The notes beneath the pieces are model-generated. The model had not been told where the DNA came from, ran no database searches, and saw only the letters and a list, made by a program, of their open reading frames with translations. Below are positions 9,680-62,500 of a stretch of 64,000 nucleotides of DNA, one piece after another (positions within the stretch are counted from its first letter, which is position 1; each line of letters opens with the position of its first letter). The stretch lies in assembly GCA_000091205.1 (NCBI GenBank), contig AP006496.2; one strand, 5' to 3'. The translations under genes were made by a program, and so were the position numbers. Source of the DNA: Cyanidioschyzon merolae (taxonomy: Eukaryota).

Positions 9680-9989
9680 AGTCGACTAGGTGCAGAAAGC
9701 TTCGACGGGTCCGAGCGTCGTCACCGGACCTTGTTCGAAAAGCATTCTCATTCGTTGGACAAGCTTTGCAACGTAGTGTTCGCCCGCCGTCTGGTACGGC
9801 GTTTCGCCACCACAGCGGGGCGTTCTCGCGAGAACTCGAAAGTCGAAAGAGCCGCCGCGCAGCCGAATAAGTGCACGCTGGTATCGTATTGCGTGGGCTT
9901 TGTTTCGTACCAGGTATCTAGTGATTCACAATGTGTTCAGGAGTCATCGTTCATGAGCAATGAATCTTTAAAATTCCTGGTTCAGCATG

Positions 9990-11137
9990 AAATGGAACGC
10001 TGAACTTGTCGATCTGTTCCTGCGTATCGATTGGGTTTTCCGAACGATTTACCAGAGACAGAGCTTCGAGATTCGCAGTGCAGCAATACGGGATTACGGA
10101 TTCATAGATAATTTCAGGAGTTTCCATCGTCTTGTCGCGGAAATTCAGGATGCCAAGGATATCGGGGTGATTCGCAACACACTCGAACAAAGGCACCTCA
10201 AATAGATGATCGTATCTTCCAGTGCATACGCACGAGGCTCCGCTCTCCTCCAATCCCTGCGGTACCAGCATGCTCTAATCAGGTATGCTTCGGGTTTTCG
10301 ATTTCTGTGGTCCAAGGCAACTCGCGGACGCGACAATGCGCGCTGTTGAATGGACGAGGAAGACAACTCGGCGTCGTCGTTTGAAGAGTTGTTGCATGGA
10401 GAAGGGTCCTGGATGCTGACTTGAGGCATCGCAGCGATCGACTCGAATGGAGTGTCGAAGGAGCAACCCATATCGACCGGATTTCCATACTGGATTTCCG
10501 TCTCGGTTCTTGGTTGTGCATGGAGAACATTGCGTTCAGCAAATCCTCTATTGATCGGAAGGGCGTGCGCTTGCTTGTGAAGCGAACAGCGTACCCGCCT
10601 ATGCGACTGCCCAGAGGAGGCTCGTATCGGAAGTGTGCGGCACTCGGCATTGAGACTGAGGCAGATATCATGGGGCGCCCTCTCTACCAGTCCGGGGCAC
10701 GTACCGGGCGAAGAAGCGAGCGGTGACGCACCCCAGGGCGGCGCTCGGAGGCGGAGGCGGCACGGGAGGCCCACGGGAATACCCTGCGGTAGCCGAACGA
10801 TACCCCGACGAATTCGCTCCCCGGATTCATACAAAGCAAAGGCACGTAGTAAGGGAAACATGTATCGATTGTGACGCCAATGCATACACTGCATGAAGAA
10901 CTGCTGCAGGCGGCGACCTTGCGACTCGAACGCTGCCATCAAAGTCCTTCGACTGCTGCAAACGTAGCCAGTTCGAAAGGAACGACCGAGTTGTTCACAG
11001 CCGGCGCTCAGAGAGAGTCTAAAGGAAGCGGTTGCCGAGAAATCCCGCATATATCGGTGTTGATCACAGTCGAAAGAAGCCAAACCAGTAGCGTATACGC
11101 CCGAGTTGTCAAACTGGACCCATTCCATCTCAGTCTG
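9990..11137. repeat. Inverted repeat copy A (~1148 bp), partner at 21790-22937
   Basis: All ORF-track peptides in this interval reappear on the opposite strand in 21790-22937. Examples: 10635..10874(+) 79 aa is identical to 22053..22292(-); 10145..11152(-) matches 21799..22782(+) with 3 substitutions. Position mapping is posA+posB=32927. The interval is AT-richer than flanking genes. Confidence 0.9.
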
Positions 11138-11443
11138 GTATGGCTCCATCATAACCCTGGACCCCCGGGTGTGCGTGTGCTATCAATAACCATCGGGAGA
11201 CCGCAGTTCCATTTTAGACGTCGCCAGGTGCTGCTCATCCTGGAACCGTGTTCAGCTCAATACCAGCGAGCAAGTCGATGGAGCGATCGCCCTTGGCGTA
11301 CGTTTTCGCTGGCGAGGGCGTTGCAGATGCGCCTCTCGCTGGCCAGCCTGCGGAGATGCAACATTTTTGTAATCGTAGTAGGTAGCGGGTCTGGGAAGTG
11401 GTACCAGGACGGCTCGTTTCTCTTGACTAGACGCGCATGGCTC

Positions 11444-20617: not shown

Positions 20618-21789
20618 ATCCCCTGTCAATGATTCAAAGAAAAAGTGTCTACTAGTACACGTCACCAATAGTTCCTGTAGCGTCAATAGAGCAGTTTCGT
20701 TGGTCACTGCTTAGAAACGCAAGGAATATGAATGCCAGTTGCATGTGGCGATAACGGCTGTGCCGTACGCGTGGCATGCACGGATCAGCGAGATCGCCTG
20801 GCGGGAAGCCGCCATACGATGCGTGCATGCGTACGTGCGTGCGCGATTCCGCAATGCGTAACGCCTCGGCGGTGCGCCGCGCGTTGCTGATCGCTATCGC
20901 ATCGCAGTCTTTGCCCTCAAAAGTGTTCCGCATTCAGGTGCATGTCATCAAATGCTTTTTCGCTGCTTACCGCGGACGCATGCAAAGTGCTTTCGTTTGA
21001 AGTGATGAAAAAACCAGGGGAAAGTATGGACATGCAAGTCGGGAATCCTAGGGGGGTCGTCATCGCCGGGTGCAGGAAAAACAACAAAAAATCCTCTTCT
21101 CGTTGACTCTCGAGCGAAGAAGAAGAACAATGGACGAAGAAGAAATGAGGAGATCGTCGAGAAAAGGCGTTTGCCCGATGGAACGATGACGAGACTTTGG
21201 CGCCATACAGGGCACGAGTCCGAGGACTCTTTGTATCAGTGAATTCCACCAGCGAGAACGAACGCATAGAGTTCGTGAACAGAGACTTCAACATCGCCAT
21301 AAAAATCCGACGATGTGCGGTACTGAAGACAAGACCCGCAGGGCTGTGGCTATCTAACTTTATGGAGCAGCCTCTCGGGCTCGAAGCATACGATGAGAAG
21401 CTGAAGCAGATAGCACGTGTACAGTCGCAAAAGGCTGAGAAGCGTCTGCGCCTGGGTAGATATACATCCTCGACATGGTCCTGCGACCTTTACGCAGCGT
21501 CCAACGAGGTACTGGGATCGAGGTGGCACGAGAGAGCGCCCGCGTTCGTGCGAGCTTTAGCGCGCAGCTTCAGTGTGCATGGGGATCCCGCAACTGATGG
21601 CACGTGGGTCAACTGGGCCGCTTCAGCTGCTACCCGAACGCCAATATGCAGAAGCTCCCTGCCTCTTGTGATTCGCTTTGCACATGTATCCGTCTTCTGA
21701 ACAGGGGCATTTCTGTTATTTCCATTCAGAGGCAGATCAAGGAAAGACAGCGAGAGTGAATCAGTGCACAGAAGGGTTTACGCTAATGT

Positions 21790-22937
21790 CAGACTGAGAT
21801 GGAATGGGTCCAGTTTGACAACTCGGGTGTATACGCTACTGGTTTGGCTTCTTTCGACTGTGATCAACACAGATATATGCGGGATTTCTCGGCAACCGCT
21901 TCCTTTAGACTCTCTCTGAGCGCCGGCTGTGAACAACTCGGTCGTTCCTTTCGAACTGGCTACGTTTGCAGCAGTCGAAGGACTTTGATGGCAGCGTTCG
22001 AGTCGCAAGGTCGCCGCCTGCAGCAGTTCTTCATGCAGTGTATGCATTGGCGTCACAATCGATACATGTTTCCCTTACTACGTGCCTTTGCTTTGTATGA
22101 ATCCGGGGAGCGAATTCGTCGGGGTATCGTTCGGCTGCCGCAGGGTATTCCCGTGGGCCTCCCGTGCCGCCTCCGCCTCCGAGCGCCGCCCTGGGGTGCG
22201 TCACCGCTCGCTTCTTCGCCCGGTACGTGCCCGGGACTGGTAGAGAGGGCGCCCCATGATATCTGCCTCAGTCTCAATGCCGAGTGCCGCACACTTCCGA
22301 TACGAGCCCCCTCTGGGCAGTCGCATAGGCGGGTACGCTGTTCGCTTCACAAGCAAGCGCACGCCCTTCCGATCAATAGAGGATTTGCTGAACGCAATGT
22401 TCTCCATGCACAACCAAGAACCGAGACGGAAATCCAGTATGGAAATCCGGTCGATATGGGTTGCTCCTTCGACACTCCATTCGAGTCGATCGCTGCGATG
22501 CCTCAAGTCAGCATTCAGGACCCTTCTCCATGCAACAACTCTTCAAACGACGACGCCGAGTTGTCTTCCTCGTCCATTCAACAGCGCGCATTGTCGCGTC
22601 CGCGAGTTGCCTTGGACCACAGAAATCGAAAACCCGAAGCATACCTGATTAGAGCATGCTGGTACCGCAGGGATTGGAGGAGAGCGGAGCCTCGTGCGTA
22701 TGCACTGGAAGATACGATCATCTATTTGAGGTGCCTTTGTTCGAGTGTGTCGCGAATCACCCCGATATCCTTGGCATCCTGAATTTCCGCGACAAGACGA
22801 TGGAAACTCCTGAAATTATCTATGAATCCGTAATCCCGTATTGCTGCACTGCGAATCTCGAAGCTCTGTCTCTGGTAAATCGTTCGGAAAACCCAATCGA
22901 TACGCAGGAACAGATCGACAAGTTCAGCGTTCCATTT
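21790..22937. repeat. Inverted repeat copy B (~1148 bp), partner at 9990-11137
   Basis: Reverse complement of 9990-11137 at about 99% identity; about 7 amino-acid substitutions across the mirrored ORF-track peptides, e.g. YARVVKLD vs YTRVVKLD and IRNTLEQ vs IRDTLEQ. Confidence 0.9.
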
Positions 22938-25126
22938 TAACCCGGCACGATCGTACAATACACTTGGCACTGTATGCAGCGCGGTGCTGGTCGTCGTTCA
23001 TGGGCCCAGTATGCACCGGCTATAAAAAAACATGAGGACAGTAGACCCTGTCATCGTGCGCGGGTTCTGCGAGTCATACATTGCTGCTACAGGGAAAACG
23101 CCAAGACCTGGATCTTGCATGCCTTGATTTAGATCGTGCTGTAGTTTTTCATCGATATCTAGGATCCATCTACGAGTCTGAAAGTAAGGAAAACTGCAAC
23201 CGATGCGCCTCGAAAGAAAAGTGGACGCCGCAGCATGCACCCAGGTACATCCATATGCACAGTCTGTTGTCTTCATGGGCAACGAAGCACGCACCCGGCC
23301 TTGCATCGGGTTATCATCCACCACGGCAGCCTGTGCGCACATACCTGGCGGCCGCCTGAGGATGCGAGCGTGTTCCGCACAAGTAACCGTTGAATCAAAG
23401 GCAAAGGCACTTGCACAGAATTGAAGGTTGACGCGTCAGTGAGAGCTGGCATCGTCCCACGCGTAAGAGCCTTGTCAGCATCATAGAACCTCTGCCAGGC
23501 ACTCAATGGCGTGACAAGGGCACAGGCGGGCTCCCGGAGACCTCCAACGACCGCCACCCATCCATGATGATGCAGCATCGCTGAATCTTGTCTGAATCTC
23601 ACGGGTACACAGGCGCTGCTGATCGACAGGGCTGGACCAGCACGCGCACCTGTGACCTAACTACGAATTCCGCCACCTCCACAGCGATATGCTCCACTTG
23701 TGAAGAGAACTTGTAGAGCAGGCACCCTGGAAACGTCGTCCAGACACGATGCGGTCTCGTCGTCTCTGTGCGAGCTTCGATGTGACGCTTCGCCAGCGTT
23801 GAATCTCTGCGGACCGGAAGCGGTACCGCTCCAGAGCCACATGCAACAATGCCCCGAATTCGAGCAGAGCGGTATGGCGGAGCTCTCGGAGCCGCCTCAT
23901 CACATCTGCCACAACCAGAAATGTGCAAGTCATTCGGAAGCGTCGCATGGAACGCAGTTCCCAGCGTGGCAGTTGCTTGGAGCGACAAGCAGCGTTTTTC
24001 GCTCCACTCATGGATCTATATCGTATCTGCACTGAGAAACACCTCTATATTACGCGAGATATGCGATCAGTAAAAAATCCAGATTCACTCCATGATACCC
24101 GCGCGCTTCTGCGAACACACATGGATGAACGCTTGGGAAATAGCTCCCTGATGCTGTTCTTCATCGCGCCTGTTGATTATATAGGAATCGGTGCTGATGC
24201 AAGCTCGGTGGTAACTTCCCGTACGGGCGCCACAGACACATCCTTCACGTTCTGAATGAGTTTCTGCTACTCGGGGTGCCTCCTGGGCGTTCAGGAAGAG
24301 GCTGGAAGCCCCTACGTGAGGCGCAGGTTCCACCCTGACACCAAGTTCACACGTTCGCTGTGTCGCAGTTCGACAATCTTCAGCGCCCAGCGCGTGCAGC
24401 GCACGTGCGTTTGTATGCACTGTGGATCGCGAACGAGCCGAATCTCGGTTTGCGTCGACAGCTGGGGTCCGCACTCGAGCACCTGCGCGCAGCGCCTCGA
24501 TTTGGAATGCGCCAGAGACAGCAATGCGCAGCTTGATTCAGCAGCCTTGTTGGCCTTGGTATGCACCCAGTGAACCCCATAGGTCAGGTTACCTGGAGAT
24601 TACCCCATATTCTCAGCGGTACCTGTCATAGGCCACCATGCAGAGCATCGGTGCCCGGATTCCACCACAGTGCGCCGCCCCTGAGACACTCCGTATAAAA
24701 ACTTGTCAGATACCACAACACACGAAGCCGCAGCGACCACTCAAGCGTCCCCAACGACGCCATTTGCGTTGCAGCAGTGCCACGGGTGCGTCCGCCGCCC
24801 TGCACGCATCGTTACGAACGGTACCGAACGGAGCTTCTCTCACAGACGCTCATGGCAAGCTCAGCGAACGATGGAACATTCGAAATGACCAGTATCTCCG
24901 AGGGAAAGCATGGGACATAGAACTTGGAAATAGGACGTGGAACGATGAATGCGCTTCTGATCGTTGACACCAAGCAAGCAATCGGCGGTACTGGGTCCCC
25001 AGCACCATTGAAGGAAACAAGCAACCAGGCACACAGACAGCGCCGCTCGCGAGATTCGAACCTCCAGATGCAGGCACAGGCGAGCCTTCGCGGGACGCGC
25101 CACATCGCCGCGGCACGCACGCAGCA

Positions 25127-26581: not shown

Positions 26582-28116
26582 AGACACCACGACCTCGTAA
26601 TCGCGTTCCTGTCAGAGGTGACCTCAACTGGAGGCTTCGACCCATTCCCGCCCGCTGGTTGCACTTGCATCACGACCATTTGCAAAAGCGAGACCCACGG
26701 GATGTTTCATTCCGATGGAACGACCACGCTACATACGCTGTTGGTGTGTAATCGCCGCGAATGTCTGGCTTTGCAGTTGCTGGGTTCACGTCGGTAGCAG
26801 GTCCGTCACTTGGCGCTGAAGCTGCAGAACATTCTCGGCGAGTGTGCCTGTCGAGCACAGCAGGCGAGCGAATGCGGGAACATGGTTACCGTGTAACGTC
26901 GCCCCGAAGGTCGGAAAGCCCCAAAGACGCAGTCCTTTGAATGCGGCTGGCTCAGTGACCCTGCTGGTCAGCCTGGTGTTCCAGTACCTAACGCCGTTGC
27001 GCACTGAGCACGCGATGGAAAGGCCGCAAACCATGCTGGGCACCTGGTATCCGAGCGCATGTGGCGCCGAAGTTATGGCCTCTGGCTTGGTCCTATAGCA
27101 CGCCGCGCTGCTCGTTTTAAGCAGCACGCCTTGTCTAATAGGCATGCTTCGGGCGCGGCGAGCACCAGGGACCTGGCGGGTCCGCGGACTCGTTCCAGGA
27201 CCTGCGGGCATGGCGCACATGTGTGGGTTTGTGTGTACACGGAACCCCGACACGAGAGATATCCAATGCCACGATCGACTCTTGGTAGAACATAGTATCT
27301 GCCGGATATTCTAGGCATCCCACAGGCCGCGGAACGGCGCCCAGTGGTCAGTCTGCAAGCCTCGGGGATGCCATGCGCCATGGACAAACAGGCGACGCAG
27401 AGCAGCGCCCTCGAGTAGACGTCCGTCGGGGTAAAACATGAGGTCGCGCTGACCCTGCAACGCGCCTCTGGCAGCGTTTTCAATAGCGGGGTAGGCGTCC
27501 GTTTTGGGTTTGCCTCCTGGAGCGTTCGCGGATCGCTCAGACCCGTATTTTATCGGAGGATACTCCCCGGAAACAGCGAGAGCATAAAAGCGTCGGCAGC
27601 GGAGCTGGGGTCTGTTCCTGGTCGCTTCGCAGGCTCCGTCCATTCATAACGCTCCAGTTCCATGCATTCATCGATCTCACACGACCTACCATGTAAAGTT
27701 TCTGACGGTACTGATTGCCGTCCAGCTTGCAAGCGGGGTCAGATGCTGCTTGCAGCCATCGCGCCTGAACAAGCGACCTGTATACCATGTTCGCACACAA
27801 AAAAGCGCACAAGGTGTTTTTCTATTCATTGGCATGCGCTGCGGTGCTCTCATGGCAAAAGCGTGCAGTACGGGCGGCGCGACTCGAACGCGCGATCTTG
27901 TGCGTGTTAGGCACACGTCATAACCATCTAGACCACGCCCGCGCGACGAATAAGCATGCACAACAATTGATATATAAATGCTTTGGAATCTGTGCGCAAG
28001 GATGGCGAGTATGATTCGGATTCGCAGGGGCGCTGCTCCGAGCCCCGAGGTACTGGACGTCCTCGTTGACTAGCGGAGCGTCTCAGACAGACCCAAGAGC
28101 GTTGTGGGTTTCACTC

Positions 28117-31100
28117 ATGAAAGTCCTCAATAAAAGCGGGCGCGGAGAGCGGCAGTTCAAGTTCTTGTCGCTTCGCGATCGTCTGCGTCAGCTGAACACA
28201 AGCGATGCGGAGCGACTTCGCAGACCAGTCTTGGTCAGCGAAGCGTACGCGTCACGAAAGCACGAGTCGGCGTTGGATACGTACCTGCGGAACGCCATTG
28301 CCGAATGGAGCGATCGTGATCGAACACGCTCATTCCAGGCGTTTGCAAAGTCCGTGGAAGACTGGGTGATCTCACTGCCGCTTTTGCTTCGAAACCGGAA
28401 GCGAGTCTTTCGGCAGTGGGTGCTTGCTGTTCGCGAGCGATCGCCGTCGTCGTTGGCGGCGTTGATAGTTTGCTGGGAGGCTCTCGCACTGGATCTGGCT
28501 GCAGAGTTTACACCCTTCATACGACCGTCCTTAGAGGTTCTAGCAGGCGCTTTGGACTTGGAAAACGCGGATGAGACGAGTGTCTTCTTCTCGACAACAG
28601 CGCGGCTCTTTCGCTGCTGGACCAAGCAACGGCGCTTTGGGCAGCAGCAAGCGCCTCAAGTGTTGCGTTCATGGGCGGCGATGCTGCTCTGTCATCGCAG
28701 CGAATATGTACGTCTACTTGCCGCACAGAGCGCTGGCGTGCTTTTGCGTCGACTCCCGATCGAGGACATACAGCCGCTGGTTGCAACGCTGGTCACTCAG
28801 TCGGGCACCGATGCCGCCACCACCGAGACGCAGCGGAGGATGGCAGACGGCCTAGCGGCAACTTTCTTCTACGGATGCTGCGGCATTCGAGGGGAGCCAC
28901 ACTCAAAGGCCCCCGTCCTGCTTGAAAAGCTTCAACACTGCATCTTGCACCACGAAGCGCATTATGACACATCGGATGCCTTTCCGCAGATGCTCCTCGC
29001 TGCGCTTTGGTGGCGACTAGGGCGAGCGCTGACGCCCAGCGCCCTTGCACAGCTGCAGGAATCCACTTTGCTGGTTTCCCTGGAGCACGCGCACCCGAAA
29101 CGTCTCGTTCATGTCATGGAGGCACTGGGCGCCTGCCTCTACGGATGCTGCCGCAACGCGGTATCGTCGTCCTCGGAGCGTGCATCGCTCCTGAGCGGGA
29201 CGTTCGCTGCAAGCGTTTCGACTTTGCAGCTGGGACGTGGTTCGGAACCTGCGCTGGTGTGGCTCCTGGCGTCCTACGGAGATGCTATTGCCCGCCTCGG
29301 CTCTTTGGCGCAGAAACGACGTTTCCTCAAAAGCCTCACAGATGACTTGGCGGACGTCCGAGTTGCCGCAGCAGTGCTCGAATCGCTGGTTACACAGACG
29401 GAGGTCTGGCGCTCCCCAGAAGCGGTTCCACTGCTCGGCGAAGTGCTTGGCTGCGTCTACCAGCGATTATCCAGAACCAGCCTGTCGCGCAGCGCTCATC
29501 TCTCCTGGATATTGCGACTTGTCACGAGTATCAGGGAGACGGACCAAACAGCTAGTGACGCGCTGTTATCGACTCTGCAACGCTGTCCAGGGATCTGGCA
29601 AGTCTCGGACCTAGAAGACAACGATTCATCAATCCGCTATCTTGCGCTGCAACTGGCAACCATGGTGCGTCTCACAGGTATGGATGACGACCAGCAGGAT
29701 CGATTGCGATGCATCCTGCAGGACGATACCTCTCTAGCTGCGCTCCTGGCTCTGTGTCGGCAGTTTCCAGCCGACAAGCCCCTATTAGACCGCTGCTTCG
29801 AGGCCGCAAGTCAGTACCCAGTAACGCCGGGTACAGAGGCTGGCTTTGACGCACTTGTACGACAGCTACTTGACCGGGACCCTGAAGGCAGCGACTTGGT
29901 GCTCTGGGCGACACAGACAGAGCGCTTCCGTTTGCAACGTGATGCTCTGTTCAGCGCAGCGGAACTTGAGCTGTGTGCGAGGTTGGCGAGGAGCAGTCCA
30001 CATCCGCAGCTGGAATCGTTTTTCCAAGCCATGGCTGAAGTCTATCAAGTCGCTTCCTCGTTTACTCGGGAAATAGACCGAATTGACGCAGCTCGTCTGC
30101 ACCTGAGACGTGTTTTGATGATGTTGCGACAGCAAGGACGTGCGAACATGCCCCAGCAGCTGGTGCGCTTGGAGCTTTTCGCCATTCTGGGCATTCTTCA
30201 ATTACCACTGACGCTGTACTGGGAAGAGGTTCCCGCATTGTGGCGAGCTGCTATGGAGCAGGTGGATCCAGCAGCACTCTTCGAGCAGGTGCTTTTGCCG
30301 GTGTTTCAGGCTACGCAAGCTCGTTGCAGCTGGGTATCCCAGCGCAGTGAGCGATTTGCTGGTGAAGAACGCGCTGGTGCCCTAGGATCACATGAAGATG
30401 CTGCAGATGCTGCTTCGACACCCGAGTCGAGCGCTGCACCAATGCTCCAAACGACTGTATCGGGGGCGGTCTGTTCACCTGAATATGAATCCGCTTCTGG
30501 TGCTGCTGCTGGTGCTGCAGATGCTGCTTCGACACCCGAGTCGAGCGCTGCATGCTTGTTACCAGCCGCAGAGCCAAGCGGGCCCAGCTCTGGAACGCAA
30601 CCTGGCGAGAAGGAGTTGCTCCGAACCGCCAAAACGGCGCGTCTGGAGGCAAAAGCTGCACGACCGGGAACATCTGCACCGACGCATACGTCGCTCGCCC
30701 AACGGAGACGCAGTGATCCGGCCAAGAGAGCCGCTCTGTCGAGCGCGCCTTTATGGCCGTGGCTCGCGAATACCAAGTCATCAAGTGACCGAATATGGCG
30801 GCGACTGAACCTGTTTCAGCCAACCGCAGAAGAAGCAGCAGGTCAGTGGGCAGCACCGCTGAACGCTGCCACGATGACGAATGCAGCTTCAACTGATTCA
30901 GCCGTTGCTACCGTTGCTTCTTCTCCCAGGACCGATACATGCCTGACGCGCTCGTCCGTCGGTCTAGGATCATATCCCTATTGTGTATCGCCGGCACCAG
31001 TTCAGAACGCTTGTCTGGATGACGAATGGAGCTCTCGTCGTCTGGCTCTCGCTCGACAGATCATTCCAGCGGACGCGTTTTACAGGAATCTGCTGCAACT

Positions 31101-34100: not shown

Positions 34101-35400
34101 CGTCGACGAGTCCGAAGACGTGTTCCAGTGCCTGGTTCACCAGCAACTGGCTACGCGTATCCGCGCATGCAGACTCCTCGATCAAGTCCTGGCAACGGGC
34201 AGTATTCCGGTGCTTGTGCGGAAAGCATTCCTGGTACCACTCGTTGAAAAATTGATCGGATTAGCGAGTACGTCAAGTCGTGTGCATTCCGAAATAGAGC
34301 AACTACAGACGAGCTGGTTGGCGAGCGCTCAGGCGCTATTGGCGGAGCGCCTCCTGGCATCGCTGCCGTCAAGCTGGTGTTGGCAACGCTTTGCGCTGCA
34401 TCTTCATCGTTTCGAACGACTAGCATCCAGCCAGAGGAGCGCAAGCACTCGTGAAGATGCCCATTCAGACGCGCGTATGTCCGCGAATGCACGACGACTC
34501 GGGCAAGCGCAGGTATTGGTGGTCTATGCCCGAGCGCTCGCTGCGCTGCCGAGTATACCGCAGGAGGTATCGGAAGCGCAGCAAATAGATCAAGCACCGG
34601 ATACACAACACGCACCGATTATGGTGCAAAACGAGCATCGAACAGTGTCACCAGAGACACAAAAATCGGGGAATGCTCCCGAGCAGCTGCTCGAGCGACT
34701 GGATGCACTCCTGGTGGCGACAAGTCTCCGTGACACCGCAGCAGTCGAGGCAGACTGCCCAGCGAGTGATCGGCACCTGGAACGAATCGTTTGGGAAATC
34801 GTGCTGCGCCTTCTCCAAGCGCTTCCGAGGCAGCAGCAGCAGCAGCGTGCAGTCTGGGTACCGCGTCTCGTTACCCGCTGGATACGTACGCTCGGTTTAC
34901 GCAACCAGCAACGGCGAGACGACGCACGCGAAGCGCTTCAGTTGTTGCTGCGGATTCTGGGACCTGAATGGCTCTGGTGCATCGCTCGCCAGTTAACGGA
35001 GACGGTGCAGGTATCCGCATCGAGAAAAGCGCTGCAGCATTCGGAAGGCACTTGGCGACTTCACGTCTGGGCGTACACGTTGCACATGTTGCTGCAGACA
35101 ACGCTGGAGTGTGATGCGTACCCCACTTGGCATCTGGATCTGGATACGCTCCAACGTGTACTCGGACTAGTGTTGCTGGTGGAGTTTCGGGATCCCGTTC
35201 TCGAAGCAGAGAAGCGCGTATCCAAGCTCTATGCGGATATCCGCGAGGTTCATGTACACAGCGCGGAGCGTTGTCTCACGCTGCTGGGTCGAGTATGGCC
35301 GATGGATCGGCTAGCGAACATGGTGCTTGCGTTGGAGCTCTTTGTGCGGGCGTTTCGTGAACGACTCGCGTTTGATACCAGTGGGTCGACGACGACGACG

Positions 35401-35466
<66 letters not shown>

Positions 35467-40461: not shown

Positions 40462-41793
40462 GCACCAGAGCGCGGCTGCAGCCTTGCCGGTTGCTACGCA
40501 GATCGCTCGCTACGCTCGAGTGTCCGAGTGGTACTGCGCGCTTCGGGTCAGGTAGCTGCTGGGTGCACCCAGATAACGCGCAAAACGGGATCGCTGCACG
40601 ACAAGCAAAACCGGTTGCTTCCCAGGAACGCTGAACGACTCGGCAAACGAGTCTGGCGTTGGAGGCAGAGCGCGTTGCTCCCGACGATATCGTCGTTCGG
40701 TTCGTGCTTCGTGCGCCTGGTTCGAGTTCAAAGCAACACGAGTACCCGATGATACAAGCAAAGAGACGGAAGGTTCAGTCTTTCATCAAACGCAGTTTAC
40801 CTACAGTCCTGATGATTGCGTGTTCGCTTACACCGAAACGTATCCTGAACCAGGGAAAATGTCTGCTGGCTGGAGTGCTCGACCTCGGGGCGGCCTCTAC
40901 CAGCATGCGTCACACGTTGCCGCCCGTGTATTCCTGCAACCTAAATAAGGACGATGACGTAGATGGTGATACTTGCGAACCACTCTTAAAAGGCAAGTGA
41001 ATCACAGAGGCTTCGTAGATACCAAGAGCAGTTCGGGCTCTTTCGAGGAAACCGCCGAACGCTACCTGTGCAACATTTTGTATGCTACCGGAAACACCGG
41101 GGCGACTCGCTTGTCAGCTATGCAGCCTTTCCGCAGGAAAACGGGTACCGTGGGCCAGCCCTTCGTAGCGTGCGCACCACTTGGACGATTATGGTGTTGA
41201 TTCCGAATGTCCGTGTCAGTCGGGTCGCTGTGGTTTCTCGAATGCTGCATCTTGCGTCTTGCACGTATCAGAAAACTATCCCAGGCGACTTGCCCCAAAC
41301 AACCATAGATTCGTCTTTACCGAGAAATATCCCCGGCATCGGCTGAGCCAGCGAGAGTTCTTGTGAAAGCAACGAGCACTGCTAATCGTCTTGAGCAACA
41401 TGAACCGGTGTTGCAGTTCCAGACAACATGGTTTGCCCGAACAGATGCTTCGCAAACAGGTTTCCTCTGAATTCGAGATTCTCCGTCTATGCACCATTGT
41501 AGCCGATGCTTGATTATAACCTTGCAGCTTCGTTGCATGCCATGCACTCTGCTCTCTGTGATTCGTGTTTATGTACGTACCTTGTCGGTGCTTGATTCTA
41601 AGCTTGCATCTCCGTCGCAAGCAAGTTCCTTTTGCATTCTACGATTCCTGTTTATGCACTATTGCAGCCGGTGCGCGGTGATGCGCTCTGCACCCTTGTC
41701 GGAATGCACTGGGGCAGGTTCCCGAACACTGGTGTACTCGTTGAAAATTGGGTCTCTTCCACTATCGATAACAGCAGCTGCTGCACGCTTTTT

Positions 41794-42580
41794 CTGTGAC
41801 TGCATCCTTTTCGACACCCTGATCCTCATTAGACCGGTCTCTGCTCACTCTCGCAGTCCTTTGACAAAAGTCGCCGGACGTTGTTGGCAGTGTTTGCGTC
41901 CCGATTTCAATGTGTTCGGCTATTGTCGACATAATCCACATACAGGCGAACGTTGCAAGCTACGCCTCGCTTGTCATTTTCATCTTCGATGCGTAGAGCA
42001 TCGGTGCACAGGGCGCAGCGATGATTCCTAACGACGATCAACTGCTCCCGTTCACCCATCACAAATTCCTCTTCCCGTTCCATGTCTTCTGGAGCATGAA
42101 CGCTTGTTTCTTCGCTCGGCGCATGCCGCTGACGCCTACGCAGGGTGCACCTCCGACGCCCATACCTTCGTTTCCGCGCCCGGCGCCGTACCCTACGATT
42201 CCAGGCCTCGTCTGGGCAATCCCTCGGGCGGGGACGCTGTCCGCTAGATGCACAGGCGCACGCTTCTCCACTCGATACGTAATTCGTGGAACGGGGTGTT
42301 GTCTGTGGAGAAACACGTGCCACAAGGCGAATCGACGCCGGGGAACAAGGCGCGGAATTGCGATCTGTCTACGCTCGCCTCGTGCAAGGCGCAGTCGCAC
42401 GCTGAAACGGAAGCGATCACTGTGATGACTCAACTGCGAATCAATGATCAGTCTGATGAAGTTGCTGTGGAATTCTGCTTTGCGAGATGCGTTGACTAGA
42501 AGGCGATTTGTCTTTTGAACGGAATCGATAATGTGCTGGGAAAATCCCAATCAACTTTCGGATTGAGCTTATGAACAGGC
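41794..42580. repeat. Direct repeat copy 1 (~787 bp), partner at 47154-47940
   Basis: ORF-track peptides are duplicated with a constant +5360 offset: 42021..42425 and 47381..47785; 42059..42550(-) and 47419..47910(-); 41907..42323(-) and 47267..47683(-). Boundaries from the sequence are ...ctgtgactgcatc at the left and ...gagcttatgaacaggc at the right. Confidence 0.9.
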
Positions 42581-43525
42581 CATCAAACGACGACGACGTG
42601 TTCTTTGACGCACCCGCCTGTCCAGTAGTGCGACTTGTTGCGCACACGACTTGCCGTGATAGATTGAAACGTTGAAGCATGCGTGAATCGCGCACGCTAC
42701 TCCTAAAGCAAGCAGCAGACTGGAACCTTGTTCTGTGAACAAAACAATACTATCGCTTATATTCCGAAATAGAGGTCGAGGGCATCGCGAATCACCTTGA
42801 TTCCGGTGAAATAACGAGTTCGAGGAGCAGCGCTTCGAAGGTGCCTTCGCGAAAAGACGTCCGGGATTCCTAACATCTCACGTGCGCTCCCATAAGCCTT
42901 CTGCTGCTCCACGTTCACATTTCGTCAATACATCTAAAATCAATTCAGAACAAAGTCTCAGTGCTCGAATCGATTGAGCATTTCCGCGTTACGCTTTCCC
43001 CAAGCGCCACTGCAGGCCAACGAGCGCTGCTGTGCCGTACGAGCCCGCAGCGTCGACAGCGGCGACGGTGTCGGGGCGCCCGACAACGCTGGCACTCGCC
43101 CCTTGCATCGGTATGCAAAGCGTACCTCAAGCAACGTCTACTTCGCATAGGTGCACTGCACTTGGGTTTTTGTAGCTTGCTGGATCTAGTTATTCCAGAG
43201 TAGCGCAGCGTGCGGCTGTTTGAGCGCGTTCCAGGCTTGGCAGCGTTCCGCGAAGCCCGAAGCAGAACGTCGCTAGTGGACGACGCGGCTGCGGCAGAGG
43301 CAGGTGCAGGCGCCCGGCGGAAAGCACACCAGTGTAGCAGCTATTGTGTGCGCTTACCCAGGTGAGTGCTGGTTGAGGTTTTAGGTTTGAGTGCGTCGGC
43401 TAGGTGCTCAGAGCATAACCTCTGAGACGCGAACGCGTAAGCGCCAGCTGCACGTGGAAACAGGGGACGTCTGCGGACAGCAGCCTGTGGCATTGCTTCC
43501 GTAGCCTAGGCCGGAGCCACATAGT

Positions 43526-46231
43526 ATGGTGAATATAGTTTGTAGGAGGGGTTTGCTGGGGCAACTTGCTCGGTCTGGAGCAGCACTTTTGCACACGGTA
43601 GACGTGGGGGCCGGATCGTCACGGCGCGTTGCTGTTCGCACTGTGGTTGATTGGAGTCCAGCTGTACAGCAGGCGCGTCTGCCGTTGGAAGCAAACGCTC
43701 AGAGCTCGGTACAAGTTGCAGATGAGCGCCATTTGAGGCTTTTCGACACGTGCCGAAGAACTTGCGAGCGGTGGAGCTCCAGTCAAAGCGGCACGAGCGT
43801 CACTGGTAACGACTTGGCCGGCGTCTCGCTTCGAGTGTTTCCACGAAGGCATCGTGCTGCCAGCACGGCGACGCGCAAGTGTGCCGTGGTAGACGCTGCC
43901 GGCCTCAGAGCGCTGCTGCAGGCGAAACCTAAGCCGCCACTGCTCACCCTGGACTGGACGGAGCGGGTAGCGCGAGGGAGGTCGACGTCAACGCTCGCAG
44001 AGCGCTGGCGTTGCAGCTGGCGGGCGCGACCTCGCATTGAAAAGGCACCCCAGCGATGTCAAAGCACGTCGCCATCACCATCCTCGTCTTCGTCCTCGTC
44101 CTCGTCCTCGTCCTCGTCGTCGTCATCGTCGTCGTCGTCTGCTGCAGGCACAACCGGGGGTTCGTCGCGTCTCTTTACCAATCGATTACGAGGGCGCTCA
44201 CAATACCTAGGAGAGCGACTTCACAGAGCATTGCATAGGGTACGCTCTTGGTTAGCACAGCTTCCAGCACGCACGCTGAAGACCATCGAGTCGTTCGCAA
44301 AGCGGCTCTGGAGAGAGGTCGTGGCCTGCATTCGCCAGCCATCACGCCTTGTCATGCATTATCGTCACGCAAAGCAGACGATAACCGACTTTATTCATCA
44401 TTTCTGGACTGGTACCAAGCTGCTTGCGGCAGATGCTCGCTTGTCCTGGCGCATCATCAAACGCTTGGCGCAAGGCAAACAGCTCACTCGTCGAGAGCGC
44501 AACATTCTGATCGGGACCGGCAGTGATCTAGCGCGTTTGGTTCCATTTTCTTTCTTTATTATTGTTCCTTTTATGGAGTTTGCCCTGCCGTTGGCGTTGA
44601 AACTCTTCCCAAATATGATTCCCTCTCATTTTCAAGACAAGAAAAAGAAGGAAGAGGATATGAAACGCCAGCTCAAGGCGCGTATTGAACTCGCCAAGTA
44701 CTTGCAAGATGTCGTAGAGGCACAGGCGCTGATGATTCGTAACCAAGCTTCAGCCGGTGATGATGTTCGCAAACTGGCGAGTGAGCTTTCCGAGTTTCTG
44801 CAGAAGCTCCGCGAAGGTCATCCAGTGGATAAGTGGGATGTGCTGCGCTTCGCACGGCTTTTCAAGGATGAGATCACGCTTGAGAACGCCACTCGGGAAC
44901 AGCTCGTGGCCATGTGTCGATACATGGGCATTGCTCCGCACGGCAGTGACAGCTTTCTGCGCTATCGTTTACGGGCCAAGCTCGCGTCCATCAAGAACGA
45001 CGACATGCTCATTGCGTGGGAAGGCGGAGTCAAGAGCCTCACCGATGACGAGGTCACACAGGCGTGCCGCGATCGCGGTATCCGAACCGAGGGCCTGCCC
45101 ATTGAGCACCAGCGACAAATGCTTGCCGAATGGATTGAAATGTCGCAGAATCGCGAGATCCCCGGATCGCTCATGATCCTATCACGCGCATTCTTCTACA
45201 CCATGGATCCCGACAAGGCACTGGAGGCGACGCTCACTTCGCTACCGCATGAACTCGTGCAAGGCATGCAGTCCTCGGCTGAGGCGGCGGATGACGCCAT
45301 CGAAGGTGTTGGTACATCTGAAACTGGAGCCGAACACCGGAGTGAATCGGAGCGGCGTCTAGCTGAGGTACGACGCCACGAACGCCTCATGGAGCTTGAG
45401 GAGCAAAACGCTGCGGAGCAGGCAGCAGCAGCAGCAGCAGCAGCTGCTGCTGCTTCAGCGAAGCCAACAACGGATCACGAGTCCGAGGCGGCTGCGGTGA
45501 CGTTGCCAGCTAGCGCCGCTCCCGAGGCAGCTGCGATCGAACGCATACGCGAAGCAGAGCTTGTGCCGCCAAGTCCACGTGAAAGCAGCGTTGCTGCCGC
45601 GTCTGCAGTCGAAACCGAGGCTGTCAAGGCTGGCACCGGGCCCGCCACCTCCTCGGACAAGCTTCTGGACCGGCACCTGGCCGAGCTCAATGTTGCTGAT
45701 CGGAAAGAGGCGGTGGCAATGATCAGCACTGCATTGGAAGAAATGCTGCATCCGATCGTATCAAAAGAGCGGCAGGAAATAGAACAGTTGAAAATGGAGC
45801 TCGCCCAAGCTGTTGCGAACAGCGCCGGACCCAATGCCGCTACGACAGCTGAAATAGAACGCTTGAAGCGCTTCATCGCGCGCCTGGAGGAGGAATGCAC
45901 GCTCGTAGAGCAAAAGGTGGGCGACGCGCTCAAGCTTCTCGACCGGGATAACGACGGCTTCATCTCCGTGAAGGAGATCGCCGATGCGATTGCTGAGCTG
46001 CGCTATGGTCAACCGCTCACTGCGGGCCGAAGTGCAGCGGGCATTCGACCGCCAGGCCTAGAGAGCCGAGTCGACCCCGACTCTGTCGCTGCCGAAGTGC
46101 TCCGCCGGCTTGACCTGGACGCCGATGGTATCATTCAGCCGGACGATATTCGCCGACTGGCAGCTCAGGTTGCTGCGGAGCGACTTGGTCATAGACAAGC
46201 TGCTTCAGCAGCTGCATCGAAGAGCGAATGA
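43526..46231 (+). CDS. LETM1: LETM1/Mdm38 mitochondrial inner-membrane protein (LETM1 domain plus C-terminal EF-hands)
   Basis: 901-aa ORF. LTRRERNILIGTGSDLARLVPFSFFIIVPFMEFALPLALKLFPNMIPSHFQDKKKKEEDMKRQLKARIELAKYLQDVVEAQAL matches human LETM1 [83 protein letters not shown]. Homology continues through SLMILSRAFFY. C-terminal EF-hand-like loops are DRDNDGFISVKE and DLDADGIIQPDD. The roughly 250-aa N-terminal extension contains a poly-Ser(23) tract from a (TCC/TCG)n microsatellite at about 44065-44150, so the true start is uncertain. Confidence 0.92.
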   Translation: MVNIVCRRGLLGQLARSGAALLHTVDVGAGSSRRVAVRTVVDWSPAVQQARLPLEANAQSSVQVADERHLRLFDTCRRTCERWSSSQSGTSVTGNDLAGVSLRVFPRRHRAASTATRKCAVVDAAGLRALLQAKPKPPLLTLDWTERVARGRSTSTLAERWRCSWRARPRIEKAPQRCQSTSPSPSSSSSSSSSSSSSSSSSSSSAAGTTGGSSRLFTNRLRGRSQYLGERLHRALHRVRSWLAQLPARTLKTIESFAKRLWREVVACIRQPSRLVMHYRHAKQTITDFIHHFWTGTKLLAADARLSWRIIKRLAQGKQLTRRERNILIGTGSDLARLVPFSFFIIVPFMEFALPLALKLFPNMIPSHFQDKKKKEEDMKRQLKARIELAKYLQDVVEAQALMIRNQASAGDDVRKLASELSEFLQKLREGHPVDKWDVLRFARLFKDEITLENATREQLVAMCRYMGIAPHGSDSFLRYRLRAKLASIKNDDMLIAWEGGVKSLTDDEVTQACRDRGIRTEGLPIEHQRQMLAEWIEMSQNREIPGSLMILSRAFFYTMDPDKALEATLTSLPHELVQGMQSSAEAADDAIEGVGTSETGAEHRSESERRLAEVRRHERLMELEEQNAAEQAAAAAAAAAAASAKPTTDHESEAAAVTLPASAAPEAAAIERIREAELVPPSPRESSVAAASAVETEAVKAGTGPATSSDKLLDRHLAELNVADRKEAVAMISTALEEMLHPIVSKERQEIEQLKMELAQAVANSAGPNAATTAEIERLKRFIARLEEECTLVEQKVGDALKLLDRDNDGFISVKEIADAIAELRYGQPLTAGRSAAGIRPPGLESRVDPDSVAAEVLRRLDLDADGIIQPDDIRRLAAQVAAERLGHRQAASAAASKSE
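44065..44150. repeat. (TCC/TCG)n coding microsatellite (poly-Ser23) in the 5' part of the LETM1 ORF
   Basis: Seen directly: catcctcgtcttcgtcctcgtcctcgtcctcgtcgtcgtcatcgtcgtcgtcgtc. Confidence 0.85.
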
Positions 46232-47153
46232 GTAAACGACCACGTTCAAATCTGAGGACGGCTGCTCAACCGCCACTGCGTTCACTCCAGGGCCAGAGTG
46301 CTGCCCATTGTCGCTGGCAGTGTGCTAGAATTCGTCGCGACCAGAGCCGTGCACGCGGCAGCCAACGTTGTGGCTGCTCCAGGACGGCAAGTGTGCGTTC
46401 CGCACTGCGCTGGTTAGCTCGAATCGACCGTCCAAGTGCGTCAACCAGGCGGGTGCAGTTCTGGTGAAGGGTCCTCTGGAGGTGCTCCCAGGCCTCTTCT
46501 CGACGCCTTCCCCCGTTCATGCGTAGCGGCAGTGCACAGCGCCACGCCTGTATCGGTGCTGGTGGCAAGTGTGCACGTCCAGTGCACCGGACGCGCAGGG
46601 CAAACCGACGCTGCGGTGGAGGCGCGTGCTGTGTGCCGCCACGCAAGTGTGCCAGCGATACCCAGGTACCGTATTACATGCAAGTAGGAAGAGCGTTCCT
46701 GCGGGGTGAGGGGAAAAGCACACGACGAGACAATGTGTGCAAGGTGAGCAGTCACTTGGTCTGTCCCAGAGCGGTGATCGCGGCAATGTATCTAGCGCCT
46801 GAAGAAGCGCCTGCGACAAGCACCACTCGCTCCGGATTGCCAGATGGATCGTGCCTCTGCTTATGTTGCGAATCCTGATCAGAGGCTCAATGGATATTGT
46901 AGTGTCTGGAGTGATAGAGCGAGGTATGCAGGCCTCTTTCCCGGTTACCGGGAGCGTTCGGCGGACCTCGATGCATCTGGTTCATTCCGTTGACTGTGCA
47001 TTGCGGGGAACAACGGACGCCTTACGCTGGGCGCACTACCACATACATGGCGGAACGAAATGGAGGAGGTGTCACCTGGCGACCTCGAGTGGGCACACTA
47101 ACTTTTGGGTCTCTCTTTGAAAGGTCATCAACATCAGCGATGACGTGCTCGTA

Positions 47154-47940
47154 CTGTGACTGCATCGTTTTCGACACCCTGATCCTCATTAGACCGGTCT
47201 CTGCTCACTCTCGCAGTCCTTTGACAAAAGTCGCCGGACGTTGTTGGCAGTGTTTGCGTCCCGATTTCAATGTGTTCGGCTATTGTCGACATAATCCACA
47301 TACAGGCGAACGTTGCAAGCTACGCCTCGCTTGCCATTTTCATCTTCGATGCGTAGAGCATCGGTGCACAGGGCGCAGCGATGATTCCTAACGACGATCA
47401 ACTGCTCCCGTTCACCCATCACAAATTCCTCTTCCCGTTCCATGTCTTCTGGAGCATGAACGCTTGTTTCTTCGCTCGGCGCATGCCGCTGACGCCTACG
47501 CAGGGTGCACCTCCGACGCCCATACCTTCGTTTCCGCGCCCGGCGCCGTACCCTACGATTCCAGGCCTCGTCTGGGCAATCCCTCGGGCGGGGACGCTGT
47601 CCGCTAGATGCACAGGCGCACGCTTCTCCACTCGATACGTAATTCGTGGAACGGGGTGTTGTCTGTGGAGAAACACGTGCCACAAGGCGAATCGACGCTG
47701 GGGAACAAGGCGCGGAATTGCGATCTGTCTACGCTCGCCTCGTGCAAGGCGCAGTCGCACGCTGAAACGGAAGCGATCACTGTGATGACTCAACTGCGAA
47801 TCAATGATCAGTCTGATGAAGTTGCTGTGGAATTCTGCTTTGCGAGATGCGTTGACTAGAAGGCGATTTGTCTTTTGAACGGAATCGATAATGTGCTGGG
47901 AAAATCCCAATCAATTTTCGGAATGAGCTTATGAACAGGC
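47154..47940. repeat. Direct repeat copy 2 (~787 bp), partner at 41794-42580
   Basis: About 99% identical to copy 1 in the same orientation. Substitutions visible in mirrored peptides include RRGTRRG vs RWGTRRG, ENDKRGV vs ENGKRGV, STPGNK vs STLGNK and CILFDT vs CIVFDT. Confidence 0.9.
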
Positions 47941-48702
47941 GCCCAAGAGAGAACACCCCATGATTTCGTCATCCAATCGGCGGCGCGCATTGCTGCACCC
48001 AATACTTGCTGTGCGTAGGTCGAAAGCTTGACGCATCCGCGATGTGTGCTTGCTGCTTATAAAGAAATGAAACGCGTGGACGCTTTACGTATGATTTACA
48101 TAATGATATCGTCTATTTTGCGACCATTGCCCAAGATTGTCGCGATTGAGAATGATTTCGGTTTTAACGAGTTCCAGGAACAGCGCGTCAATGGAGCCAC
48201 TTCCAAACTTCGACCAAGAATCCTAGAACGACCTGGGAAATGACGAGCCGTCGCTGCTGCTCGCTAAGCAACGATGCTGTACATCAGAGGGATACTTTGG
48301 AAATAAGTCTCGAGCCTGGACTAGAGCGTACAGTTCAGTGCCCCATGTTCATCGGACACGGTATAGCGTCGCCAGGAAGACGCGGCTATGCGCCCGTTGC
48401 AACGCAACAGCAGCGATTGCGTTTCGAGGGTGTCGCCGCATCGGCGCTGGGCGGCGGCGGCGGCGGCGTCGACGACACATGCGTGCACTACGCACGGATA
48501 TCCGTGCATGTCGCGGATACGTGTACGAGGACACTTGCGTGCGTGCATGCGTACTTGCGTCTGAAACTGCCACGAGTTTCACTCAACTTTTTATCTTTGG
48601 ACCTGCTAACCAATTTGGAAACGCTTTCAATCCTCACATTCTACGTCCACGCGTGCTGTCTCGGGCGTGATCTGTGACGATCACCGGTGTTTGGAAGGTT
48701 CC

Positions 48703-59519: not shown

Positions 59520-62500
59520 GAATAGGTTACCCTGGTATCAACGGACGCGTCCAAGGAGGCCTATGGCGTCACAGAGCTTCCCCAGAGGCAGCGTTTCTCC
59601 CCCCGTGGAAGCAACCCGAACAGACGCGAGTCCGTGCCGCTCCGACTCGTTTCGCGCCATGGATCGAGCGCTCGCATGTGAGGCATCGATGGCTGGGAAT
59701 GAATAGGGAGGATATTGTATTTGATTGTATAATGGTGGACTCTGAGGACAGTGCATGCATGATCGCGAACGGCAGCGGCACATGCGCACGCATTCGCGTT
59801 CCTTGAATGAAGTTCGAGGATGGAGGAGCTCGTACGGCACCACAACGTTGTTTTGTCTGGCGTACAGCAAGTATGGCTGTGGCGCAGTTGTCGTTGTGGC
59901 GGGCCCGCTGCTCTACGGATCGGTGGATAATGCGAACGGCCAGTCTTGGTGGGAAGGCTGCTCTGTCTTCAGGGGAGCTCCGAAGCGTCGGGAGCTGAAC
60001 GAAGATCGCTCTCGCTGACTGCGGATACAAACTGATTAGAACAAGTTCGGAACGAGTACACTGTGCAAACAAGGACGTACACCCAAAGGTTTTCGTGTAT
60101 TCCTACTGTCGCCAGCAGAAGACCTTGCGGGCGTTTTCTACGACTGCTCCTTTTCTGTCTCTGTGATCTCGGGGTTTCAAATCGCTGGGCACTCCTTTCG
60201 TTCCAGCCTTCTTGGTTACAGTCGAAGGACGTTAATGACAGCGGTTGTGTACTGATTTCGTTGTTCCAGGATGTCGCGGGCGCAGGTAATTCCCATCGTT
60301 TTCGGACGCAGCCTTTGTGCGCACGCCGCAGTGGTTGCGCTTCACTGTGGTAAAGCGTTCCCGGATGCGCGCTGCATTTTCTCCTCCGAGGGCCGAGGCC
60401 TGCCCTGTGGCGCGTCAAGGCAGGCTTTATCGCTCGGTACACGCCCTTGGTGGATGCAGAAGGCACGGTTCGATGCCCTGCTCCGTTGCCGTGCCCGCTG
60501 CCTTACCCGATCATCGTGGGCTTCTTCTGGGCGATATCCTCGGCGAGTACGCTGTCCTCTAGATGCACAGGCGTGCGCTAATCAGCTCAATAGCTCAACA
60601 TCCGCTTCCTAGCGCGCCTTTTGTTTTCTGCAGACGCCGCCCAGAAAACTTGTCGATGGGCGCAACACGCCTCAAGATACGTAAGCCAGTCTTCGGTATT
60701 GTATCCACGTGTACAAGTCGACTGCGATAATTCAGCCGCAGCTTTTGGTACATTCGTCTGTTTCGCTCGCAGGCTTATCGGAATATGCTTTCAATTCGCA
60801 CACTCTGCTGAGACGAAGATAAGAGGCGTGCGAGTAGAAGCTACCGCTGTGGCGGGAAGGCGCAGGGCTCGAACCTCGTGCCTCCAGAGCATCGGCGATA
60901 ACCACAGGGAGGTTGCAATGCGCTTTGGGGCTCACGGAAAGCGCAAGTGTTGAGGTTCGCGCTCCGTGGGTCCAGGCTGATGCAGATCGCATTGGGGAGC
61001 ACCTTCTCGCGGCCATGCATCGGTGTTGATCGTTGTTCCGCCGCGTAAGACCTCAGATATTGAGCAGGGCTTGGTTTGAGCGCTGACGATGGTGTGAAGC
61101 ATGTGTATGACGTTCGAAGTTGAAGTTGAAGTTGATGATGATGATGATGATGCTGGATGCGCGAACGCTGTCAGTCTCGTTGAAAGTCACCATGTGTTTT
61201 CGTCGTGGAGCAAACCTTGCTTTCCACCTCTCTTCCTTCACAATCACATTTATCGATCACGAGAGAGGTATCATGATGCTGTCGAATGCACTCGCATCGA
61301 TGCCAGAGACGCAGGAGTTTGTGCACCGAACGGAATCGAGCATTTGGCGTGCGAAGTTTTAGTGAACGCGCCGCATAAATATGGAATAAATTCGTCAAGG
61401 TTCGAGCTCGCTTATTCTCCCTCGTCAATAATGCGGCACGAAAAGCCTGTCTCATGAGATACCTTGAATCAGGGAGATCGAAAACGTGAAGCGTGCGAGA
61501 TTCGAGCTCGCCATACGTAACAAAGGAGCAGCATGGAGGCTTGAACGCCTATATTGGATAATGATATCGGTGATGTTGCGAACTCTGGTTCGGGACGTCG
61601 TGATTCATCTTGATTTCGGTGTCGCAAAGCATACCAGTAGCAGAGCGCTGGGAAAGCCTCCGAAATCACGCCCGAGAATCCTAAAACCACGTTTGAATCT
61701 GTAAGTGCTCATTGCTGCGTTGGGAGTGTCGAGACAGTGCATCGAAAGCAAGTTCAAAAAACTATTCTCAATCCAGGAGCAAAGCGAGCAGTTTAATGCT
61801 CTATTTTCATGTCAATCGGGTGCAGCGCTCACGCAGCAGGAGCATTACGATACCCGGCGCATCGATGCCGTTGTGAAGGAGAGAAGAACCTTGCACAAAC
61901 TTGGATGGCGTATGCGCATCCAACAATTCATGAGCTCCTTCGCTCCCGCATGCCGTAAACTGTTGCCGTCGACGGGTATGCCCGGTGTCGGCTGGCGAGA
62001 GTACGTGATCCTCTACGGTGCTGCGTTCAGTTCGCTTCTTGCGGGAGCTTCTCTTGTGCATAACTGGTTGCGCCCAGACTTGACCCTGCCGAACCTGGCG
62101 GCAACAGTGACCCGAGACGCTGCTGGAGCCGTCAAGCGGACGCGGGCCCAGGAACCTCGGGCTGACACAAACGTGACGCCGTGAGGTGCGTCTCCCAGCG
62201 ACAGCGACCGGCGTGAGGGATTCAAGCTGTCACCAGGTCGTGTGCGAAAACAAGTTCTCGAAACAAGCGGAGGTCTAGCGTTCGGTTTTGGGCGCGGAAA
62301 CTATGTGTTTCGGCATGCGCCCAACTGTATTCAGGACTAGCGAAGGACGAAACATTAGAATCGTTCATGAATCGCCGAGGTGAATCGCGTTCGATGAACG
62401 TGGAGAGTGGTCTGGACTTTGCGGACTGCTGAACCGTATCATACTCGTGCTTTGGTACCAGCCGGACTCCAATGCATGCTCTCTTGGCCACTGGTTTTCT

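Follow-up and report, generated by a model that had tools for sequence, protein, structure and literature searches.

Interlocus gene conversion has been described for yeast Ty/delta elements, duplicated genes, human segmental duplications and the arms of palindromes. In these systems a near-identical tract is found within older, diverged homology, derived states are shared within a genome, polymorphisms are common to paralogs and no crossover product is seen. The same features are present at a locus on chromosome 14 of the alga Cyanidioschyzon merolae 10D, in a 64,000 bp stretch of contig AP006496.2 (assembly GCA_000091205.1; here called the window, to which all positions refer), where two 787 bp direct repeats flank the gene LETM1. 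Unlike in the described systems, the substrate here belongs to a very compact algal genome and is a short, apparently non-functional repeat of approximately 1.3 kb; the gene flanked by the tract is present in a single copy and is probably essential, and we infer the mechanism from patterns in the sequence. Efficient homologous recombination is available in the transformation of C. merolae 10D, where gene conversion at the marker locus is a design concern (PMC3764038), and the Cyanidiophyceae are known to have meiotic recombination and to permit marker excision by recombination between direct repeats (PMC13353863). We consider it likely, with a probability of roughly 0.8, that the two repeats were homogenised by ectopic gene conversion between old members of a repeat family of the C. 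merolae lineage, and that conversion recurred after the sampled strains split.

Copy 1 of the repeat (41794–42580) and copy 2 (47154–47940) are in the same, plus-strand orientation with an offset of 5360 bp. In an ungapped comparison they are 99.4% identical (782/787 bp), and the five mismatches are at 41807, 41974, 42339, 42555 and 42563. On both sides identity falls to background within a few bases. The end of copy 1 is 945 bp from the start of the long LETM1 open reading frame (ORF; 43526) and the end of copy 2 is 762 bp from the fibrillarin ATG (48703), with LETM1 complete and enclosed by both copies. An earlier note on this DNA, made from the sequence alone, had described a real repeat bracketing the complete LETM1 gene, and the ungapped comparison confirmed this. 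The ends it gave for both copies were exact, and its distances to LETM1 (approximately 945 bp) and fibrillarin (approximately 760 bp) agree with those measured here. Its estimate of approximately 99% identity also held, but the substitutions number five rather than approximately six. Chance is excluded as the origin of the match. Besides this pair, the window contains a single other long self-match, a separate 1148 bp inverted pair.

When the repeat and its flanks were used to search the window, three further, diverged relatives were found, namely the two members of the inverted pair (elements A and B) and an additional copy (element E). Together with element C (41685–43002, plus strand), which contains copy 1 and lies between TRM10 (minus strand) and LETM1 (plus strand), and element D (47031–48377, plus strand), which contains copy 2 and lies between a small minus-strand ORF and the plus-strand fibrillarin gene, these make up five elements that align colinearly over approximately 1.2 kb. 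An nhmmer profile built from the five recovers exactly those five in the window, with element C matching profile positions 6–1197 (score 1107) and element D positions 2–1222 (score 1118). Family homology continues past the identity block for approximately 100 bp on the left and 400 bp on the right, which indicates that the 787 bp repeat is only the middle part of elements C and D. A simple recent segmental duplication was ruled out, as the homology continues beyond the identity block.

Outside the core, elements C and D share 54 of 94 aligned bases (57%) on the left and 221 of 408 (54%) on the right. Either of them is 47–58% identical to B or E, i.e. C and D are no closer to one another outside the core than they are to other members. 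The homology of the right flanks is supported by a local alignment score of 54, compared with 12.8 ± 1.6 (maximum 21) for shuffled sequences. Pairwise local alignment of the left flanks alone is not significant, and it takes the five-way family alignment, which is colinear across both core boundaries, to reveal their homology. A 99.4% identical tract with sharp ends, embedded in elements that are only approximately 55% identical, is what non-reciprocal copying between paralogs characteristically leaves behind.

The locus is also represented in hot-spring metagenome contigs, which come from short-read assemblies and many of which are 97.7–99.4% identical to the window. Two of them (L011, from a 43.6 kb contig, and L016, 32 kb) carry TRM10, both copies of the repeat, LETM1 and fibrillarin on a single contig with the same spacing. 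The left junction of copy 2 is crossed by three others (L002, L003 and L017), which extend 13–149 bp into its left edge, and the right junction by a further three (L008, L009 and L010), which begin inside copy 2 and continue into fibrillarin. Thus, both copies are present with identical boundaries in strains that are 0.6–2.3% diverged from 10D. Assemblers sometimes duplicate or homogenise repeats of this size, which could raise the suspicion that the pair was created by assembly or polishing of the reference. However, the copies differ at five sites, the 10D reference is described as 100% complete, with the gaps between contigs and the ends of the chromosomes filled (PMC1955436), and two environmental contigs reach across both copies, with a junction covered in each of at least six more. 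The 787 bp repeat interrupts most short-read contigs, which is what a true repeat should do. Because independent contigs carry both copies or their junctions and short-read contigs break where a repeat should break them, an artefact is ruled out to near certainty.

One further contig (L021; k141_19654 in the European Nucleotide Archive, 5497 bp, assembled with MEGAHIT) corresponds to 41867–47367 of the window. Its start falls in copy 1 and its end in copy 2, and the two termini overlap by 141 bp. Such an overlap reflects a loop of the assembly graph through the collapsed repeat, and although the contig might be taken for a circle carrying LETM1, it is no evidence of one. Loss or amplification of LETM1 via the 787 bp direct repeats is plausible and mechanistically possible, and the contigs that cross a repeat junction show neither a deletion nor an amplification of LETM1.

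Variants within the core link the two copies to one another in each strain. At 42119, 42395 and 42476, both 10D copies have G, T and T, respectively, while both copies in L011 and L016, and nearly all other environmental contigs, have A, A and G. At 42563 (A/T) and 41974 (C/T), both alleles are found at both loci across strains, swapped between 10D and L011/L016, and for 42563 this holds across a dozen contigs. A T at 41847 was found in copy 1 and in copy 2. Among copies 1 and 2 of 10D and of L011, there is no site with the pattern expected of orthology, at which the first copies agree with each other and differ from second copies that also agree. In all, the 787 bp core has 26 sites that vary among strains, five of which are informative. 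Copy assignment is safe only near the boundaries (42476, 42555, 42563 and 41807–41854). Since 42563 and 42476 are just 17 and 104 bp from unique flank, assignment at these two is reliable even in short-read assemblies. The high identity of the repeats had been taken earlier as a possible sign of ongoing homogenisation, and the states shared at 42119, 42395 and 42476, together with the swaps at 41974 and 42563, back that suggestion.

These variants also bear on a simpler history, in which a single recent template switch, during repair or replication, pasted 787 bp of one element into the homologous position of the other not long before the strain split, with nothing but drift in the copies thereafter. 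Such an event would fit the two sharp boundaries that are identical in all strains, and the 0.64% divergence between the 10D copies is close to the 0.71% divergence between strains 10D and MS1 (PMC13353863). In addition, flanks that are approximately 55% identical make a poor substrate for classical conversion. However, three sites group both 10D copies against both copies elsewhere, and at two sites, one of them 17 bp from unique flank, the alleles are swapped between the loci. Without later exchange, the shared and the swapped sites would each need parallel identical mutations, and we regard a single event as unlikely.

Under the preferred reading, recurrent ectopic gene conversion, elements C and D would have been the recombination partners, lying in the same orientation 5.36 kb apart in the two intergenic regions beside LETM1. 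Ectopic homologous recombination would have copied an internal tract from one element to the other without a crossover. All strains share the tract boundaries, so the main copying event would have preceded the divergence of the sampled strains, and at least one or two later, smaller exchanges between the copies appear to have followed it. Flanks at approximately 55% identity would be too diverged for further conversion, and the boundary would stay sharp as a result, whereas the identical core would continue to serve as a good substrate.

Several points weigh against this reading. Conversion between sequences that are approximately 55% identical should be very inefficient, so the tract would have to have been made when C and D were more alike and then maintained, or else by a rare template switch. 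Variants that are more than approximately 150 bp from unique flank can be mis-phased or collapsed in short-read metagenome contigs. The numbers are small, with 26 variable sites and five informative ones. Finally, the family was counted in the 64 kb window and in metagenome loci, and we infer its nature from these.

Solo long terminal repeats (LTRs) resemble the present pair in being direct, highly similar repeats of several hundred base pairs in intergenic DNA, and the copies had earlier been called loosely LTR-like. Whether as solo LTRs or as the two LTRs of one retroelement, this would explain the direct orientation and high identity, and the unit starts with CTGTG... and ends with ...ACAGGC. 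However, no target-site duplication is present at either copy or across the pair (copy 1 is flanked by ...gcttttt and catcaaa, copy 2 by ...ctcgta and gcccaag), and the ends are not of LTR type. No inverted repeats were found at the ends of the 787 bp block. In addition, the identity boundaries fall inside a longer homologous unit rather than at the ends of an element, a syntenic host gene separates the copies, and related copies have an ORF-like body that spans the unit, which is unlike LTR architecture. Moreover, no LTR retrotransposons have been found in C. merolae (Nozaki et al. 2007, PMC1955436). On these grounds the LTR reading is rejected, and we give it hardly any probability.

Another suggestion in the earlier note was that the repeats are a duplicated upstream regulatory module. 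In this case a regulatory or non-coding RNA function serving LETM1 and fibrillarin would keep the core identical, through selection as well as conversion. In its favour, each copy precedes a plus-strand gene and points the same way as that gene, an arrangement found for four or all five of the window's copies, and the core persists while the flanks are near saturation. On the other hand, strains differ freely within the core, at 26 of its 787 bp, and relatives with the same gene order lack it. Family members are found in other contexts, including one between two convergent 3' ends (in L030, described below). There is no relevant Rfam match, and the conserved block shows no RNA covariation (RNAalifold gives a covariation term of +4.2, and many pairs are broken). 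We therefore find the module unsupported and a functional explanation very improbable.

The remaining three elements of the window extend the picture of the family. Element A (9962–11155, minus strand) and element B (21776–22969, plus strand) are inverted relative to one another and 11.8 kb apart, and their identity block (9990–11137 in A and 21790–22937 in B) is 99.4% identical over 1148 bp, with seven mismatches. This block is almost exactly one family unit, which makes the pair look like the product of a recent whole-unit copy. Approximately 13 bp of family sequence beyond the block is retained in A and not in B, and on this basis B may be the derived copy. Element A carries the ORF CMN060C (10145–11152, 335 aa) and element B carries CMN065C (21799–22782, 327 aa), both of which are annotated as hypothetical proteins. 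Element E (60023–61838, plus strand) is in two pieces, 60023–60593 and 61389–61838, that were found by blastn at 60–67% identity (E-values of 1e-13 to 1e-19) and that have nhmmer E-values of 9e-145 and 1e-112. It is located between ATR (minus strand) and a small plus-strand gene. The 795 bp insert that separates the pieces (60594–61388) is unrelated and replaces approximately 157 profile positions.

Outside the window, an exhaustive HMMER search with CMN060C returned ten further clusters of short metagenome ORFs (69–291 aa), none of which is annotated in 10D. All ten have the motif CRTL..SGR..RRVRC.LH.QAH.VPFDRGFVERDV.H in common, and one also has the N-terminus in common. A word-indexed protein search with CMN060C returned nothing beyond its own cluster, and the family profile returned only two clusters that had already been found; the matches in these protein searches were unnamed metagenome ORFs only. 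Two of the ten clusters could be placed at unrelated loci in C. merolae-like samples, with unit length and ends as in the window. The first (L030/L031; 4929–6089 in L030) is between a SNF2 helicase gene and a RabGAP gene that are convergent, i.e. between two 3' ends. The second (L032/L033; 5844–7229 in L032) is between the GAPDH gene and SQS_PSY (squalene/phytoene synthase), upstream of the latter and in the same orientation. We found no paper that mentions CMN060C or CMN065C, and the supplements of a study of H3K27me3 (PMC5405695) have no entry with a CMN05 or CMN06 locus ID and, under CMN07, only CMN075C.

Three relatives, Cyanidiococcus and two others (L005, L006 and L007), were compared with the window. 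All three keep LETM1, fibrillarin and ATR in synteny, while TRM10 is upstream of LETM1 in L005 and L006 only. A repeat search found no family member and no LETM1-flanking repeat in any of them, and when their intergenic regions were compared by blastn and tblastx, no counterpart of the repeat was found and only the small ORF 3' of LETM1 was conserved. The interval between LETM1 and fibrillarin is approximately 1.1–1.2 kb shorter in all three relatives than in C. merolae, and that between TRM10 and LETM1 is approximately 1.4–1.6 kb shorter in L005 and L006. From these comparisons, the family appears to be specific to the Cyanidioschyzon merolae lineage.

The unit is 1.15–1.4 kb long in seven independent copies, and only through its insert does E reach 1.8 kb. 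Homology starts 8–10 bp before the ATG and stops 160–190 bp after the stop codon. A 35-residue motif is in the same frame in at least 12 diverged copies, and identity within the family by codon position (0.64/0.67/0.59) is weakly coding-like. Strain variants in A and B are distributed 4/4/7 over the codon positions. Of the five elements in the window, only A and B keep a long ORF. C, D and E have stops in the frame homologous to CMN060C, one of them inside the best-conserved block and many of them in C, and the longest plus-strand ORF that overlaps the 787 bp repeat is 180 aa. A codon-usage log-likelihood measure, which discriminates poorly in the C. merolae genome, gave no coding signal on the repeat. 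Pfam returned no match for the four ORFs inside the repeat or for the family ORF, and the AlphaFold2 model of CMN060C has no confident fold (mean pLDDT 45, pTM 0.25).

Three identities were considered. A functional protein-coding family is not supported for C, D and E, in which the homologous frame is broken by stops. The aligned ends of the seven copies have no terminal inverted repeats, poly(A) tail or clear target-site duplications, and the lack of the first and last of these speaks against a DNA transposon or miniature inverted-repeat element. A structured non-coding RNA is made unlikely by the lack of covariation reported above and of any relevant Rfam match; between 40 and 50 kb, at E < 1, Rfam returned nothing but chance matches inside LETM1, and a tRNA scan gave no relevant match.

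Our preferred reading of the family is that it descends from a lineage-specific gene or mobile element that has since decayed. Two known kinds of sequence offer comparisons. Nozaki et al. (2007, PMC1955436) described a novel interspersed repetitive element of C. merolae with an ORF resembling the WSSV protein WSV486, present in 253 copies with a mean length of 3.2 kb and making up approximately 5% of the genome. Like the present family, it is specific to C. merolae, dispersed and intergenic, and it has a truncated, degenerate ORF of no known function. Unlike it, the present family has two copies (CMN060C and CMN065C) whose annotation is that of ordinary hypothetical genes. It is possible that the two are the same, but when the published description (3.2 kb) is set against the 1.15–1.4 kb unit found here, unit size argues against this. 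Processed pseudogenes or retrocopies are similar in that a transcript-sized unit has apparently been copied and most copies carry stops. They differ in that the present family has neither a poly(A) tail nor target-site duplications, and in that its parent ORF lacks both a confident fold and homologs in other lineages.

The near-identity of A and B raises the idea that the approximately 1.2 kb family is an as yet unclassified unit, mobile or duplicative, with continuing activity in C. merolae; we put this idea forward only tentatively and consider it doubtful. If it were so, the 'simplest' eukaryotic genome would hold a class of transposing or retro-copied element without any recognisable enzyme of its own. 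Copies of this element would remodel intergenic DNA on the promoter side of genes, and around essential genes they would recombine with one another.

Between TRM10 and fibrillarin, LETM1 is the sole protein annotated in 10D (CMN locus tags, chromosome 14). TRM10 (BAM81200.1; 39367–40461, minus strand), upstream of element C, was identified by exact protein look-up. Fibrillarin (BAM81202.1; 48703–49773, plus strand), downstream of element D, is an exact match to the C. merolae 10D protein and has a Pfam E-value of 8e-103. The longest LETM1 ORF (43526–46231, plus strand) encodes 901 aa, matches Pfam LETM1_RBD (E-value 1e-76) and has 77% amino-acid identity to Cyanidiococcus. This ORF runs 264 codons upstream of the start assigned by the metagenome gene caller (44318). 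Part of the extension (44081–44317) shows in-frame conservation with Cyanidiococcus (53% over 79 aa), and LETM1 models of 634 aa are therefore probably N-terminally truncated.

The small minus-strand ORF 3' of LETM1 (46266–46646, in a region spanning 46248–46646) is conserved, with a tblastx E-value of 6e-34 to L006, and apparently missing from the 10D protein set. It encodes up to 126 aa and ends ...HCQRQWAALWPWSERSGG*, with a C-terminus that is common to the relatives. Three-base periodicity is evident in comparisons with L005 and L006, where identity is 0.35–0.41 at every third base and 0.68–0.76 at the other bases, and the ORF has no Pfam match. It is convergent with LETM1, the two stop codons being 35 bp apart, and the interval that contains element D is thus a divergent intergenic region. 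Elsewhere, the window includes a tRNA-Val (AAC) gene (27868–27942, minus strand), a 40 bp exact direct repeat at 114 bp spacing (30399–30552) and a short tandem array with a 6 bp register (35389–35465).

The pair at LETM1 is probably a clean, small case of ectopic gene conversion, in a model alga valued for the simplicity of its genome, with base-exact breakpoints and support from natural populations. Gene conversion is a known and ordinary process, and the general understanding of it is unchanged. There are practical consequences, as LETM1 is bracketed by 787 bp direct repeats that are able to recombine, which is relevant to gene targeting in C. merolae, and the same repeats confuse short-read assembly, with most metagenome contigs breaking there. 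At least five copies of the approximately 1.2 kb family, including CMN060C and CMN065C, lie within 52 kb of chromosome 14, and they are mostly unannotated and pseudogene-like. The CMN060C and CMN065C gene models are therefore doubtful as functional genes. What is new here is the family of mostly unannotated repeats and the doubt that it casts on these two gene models.

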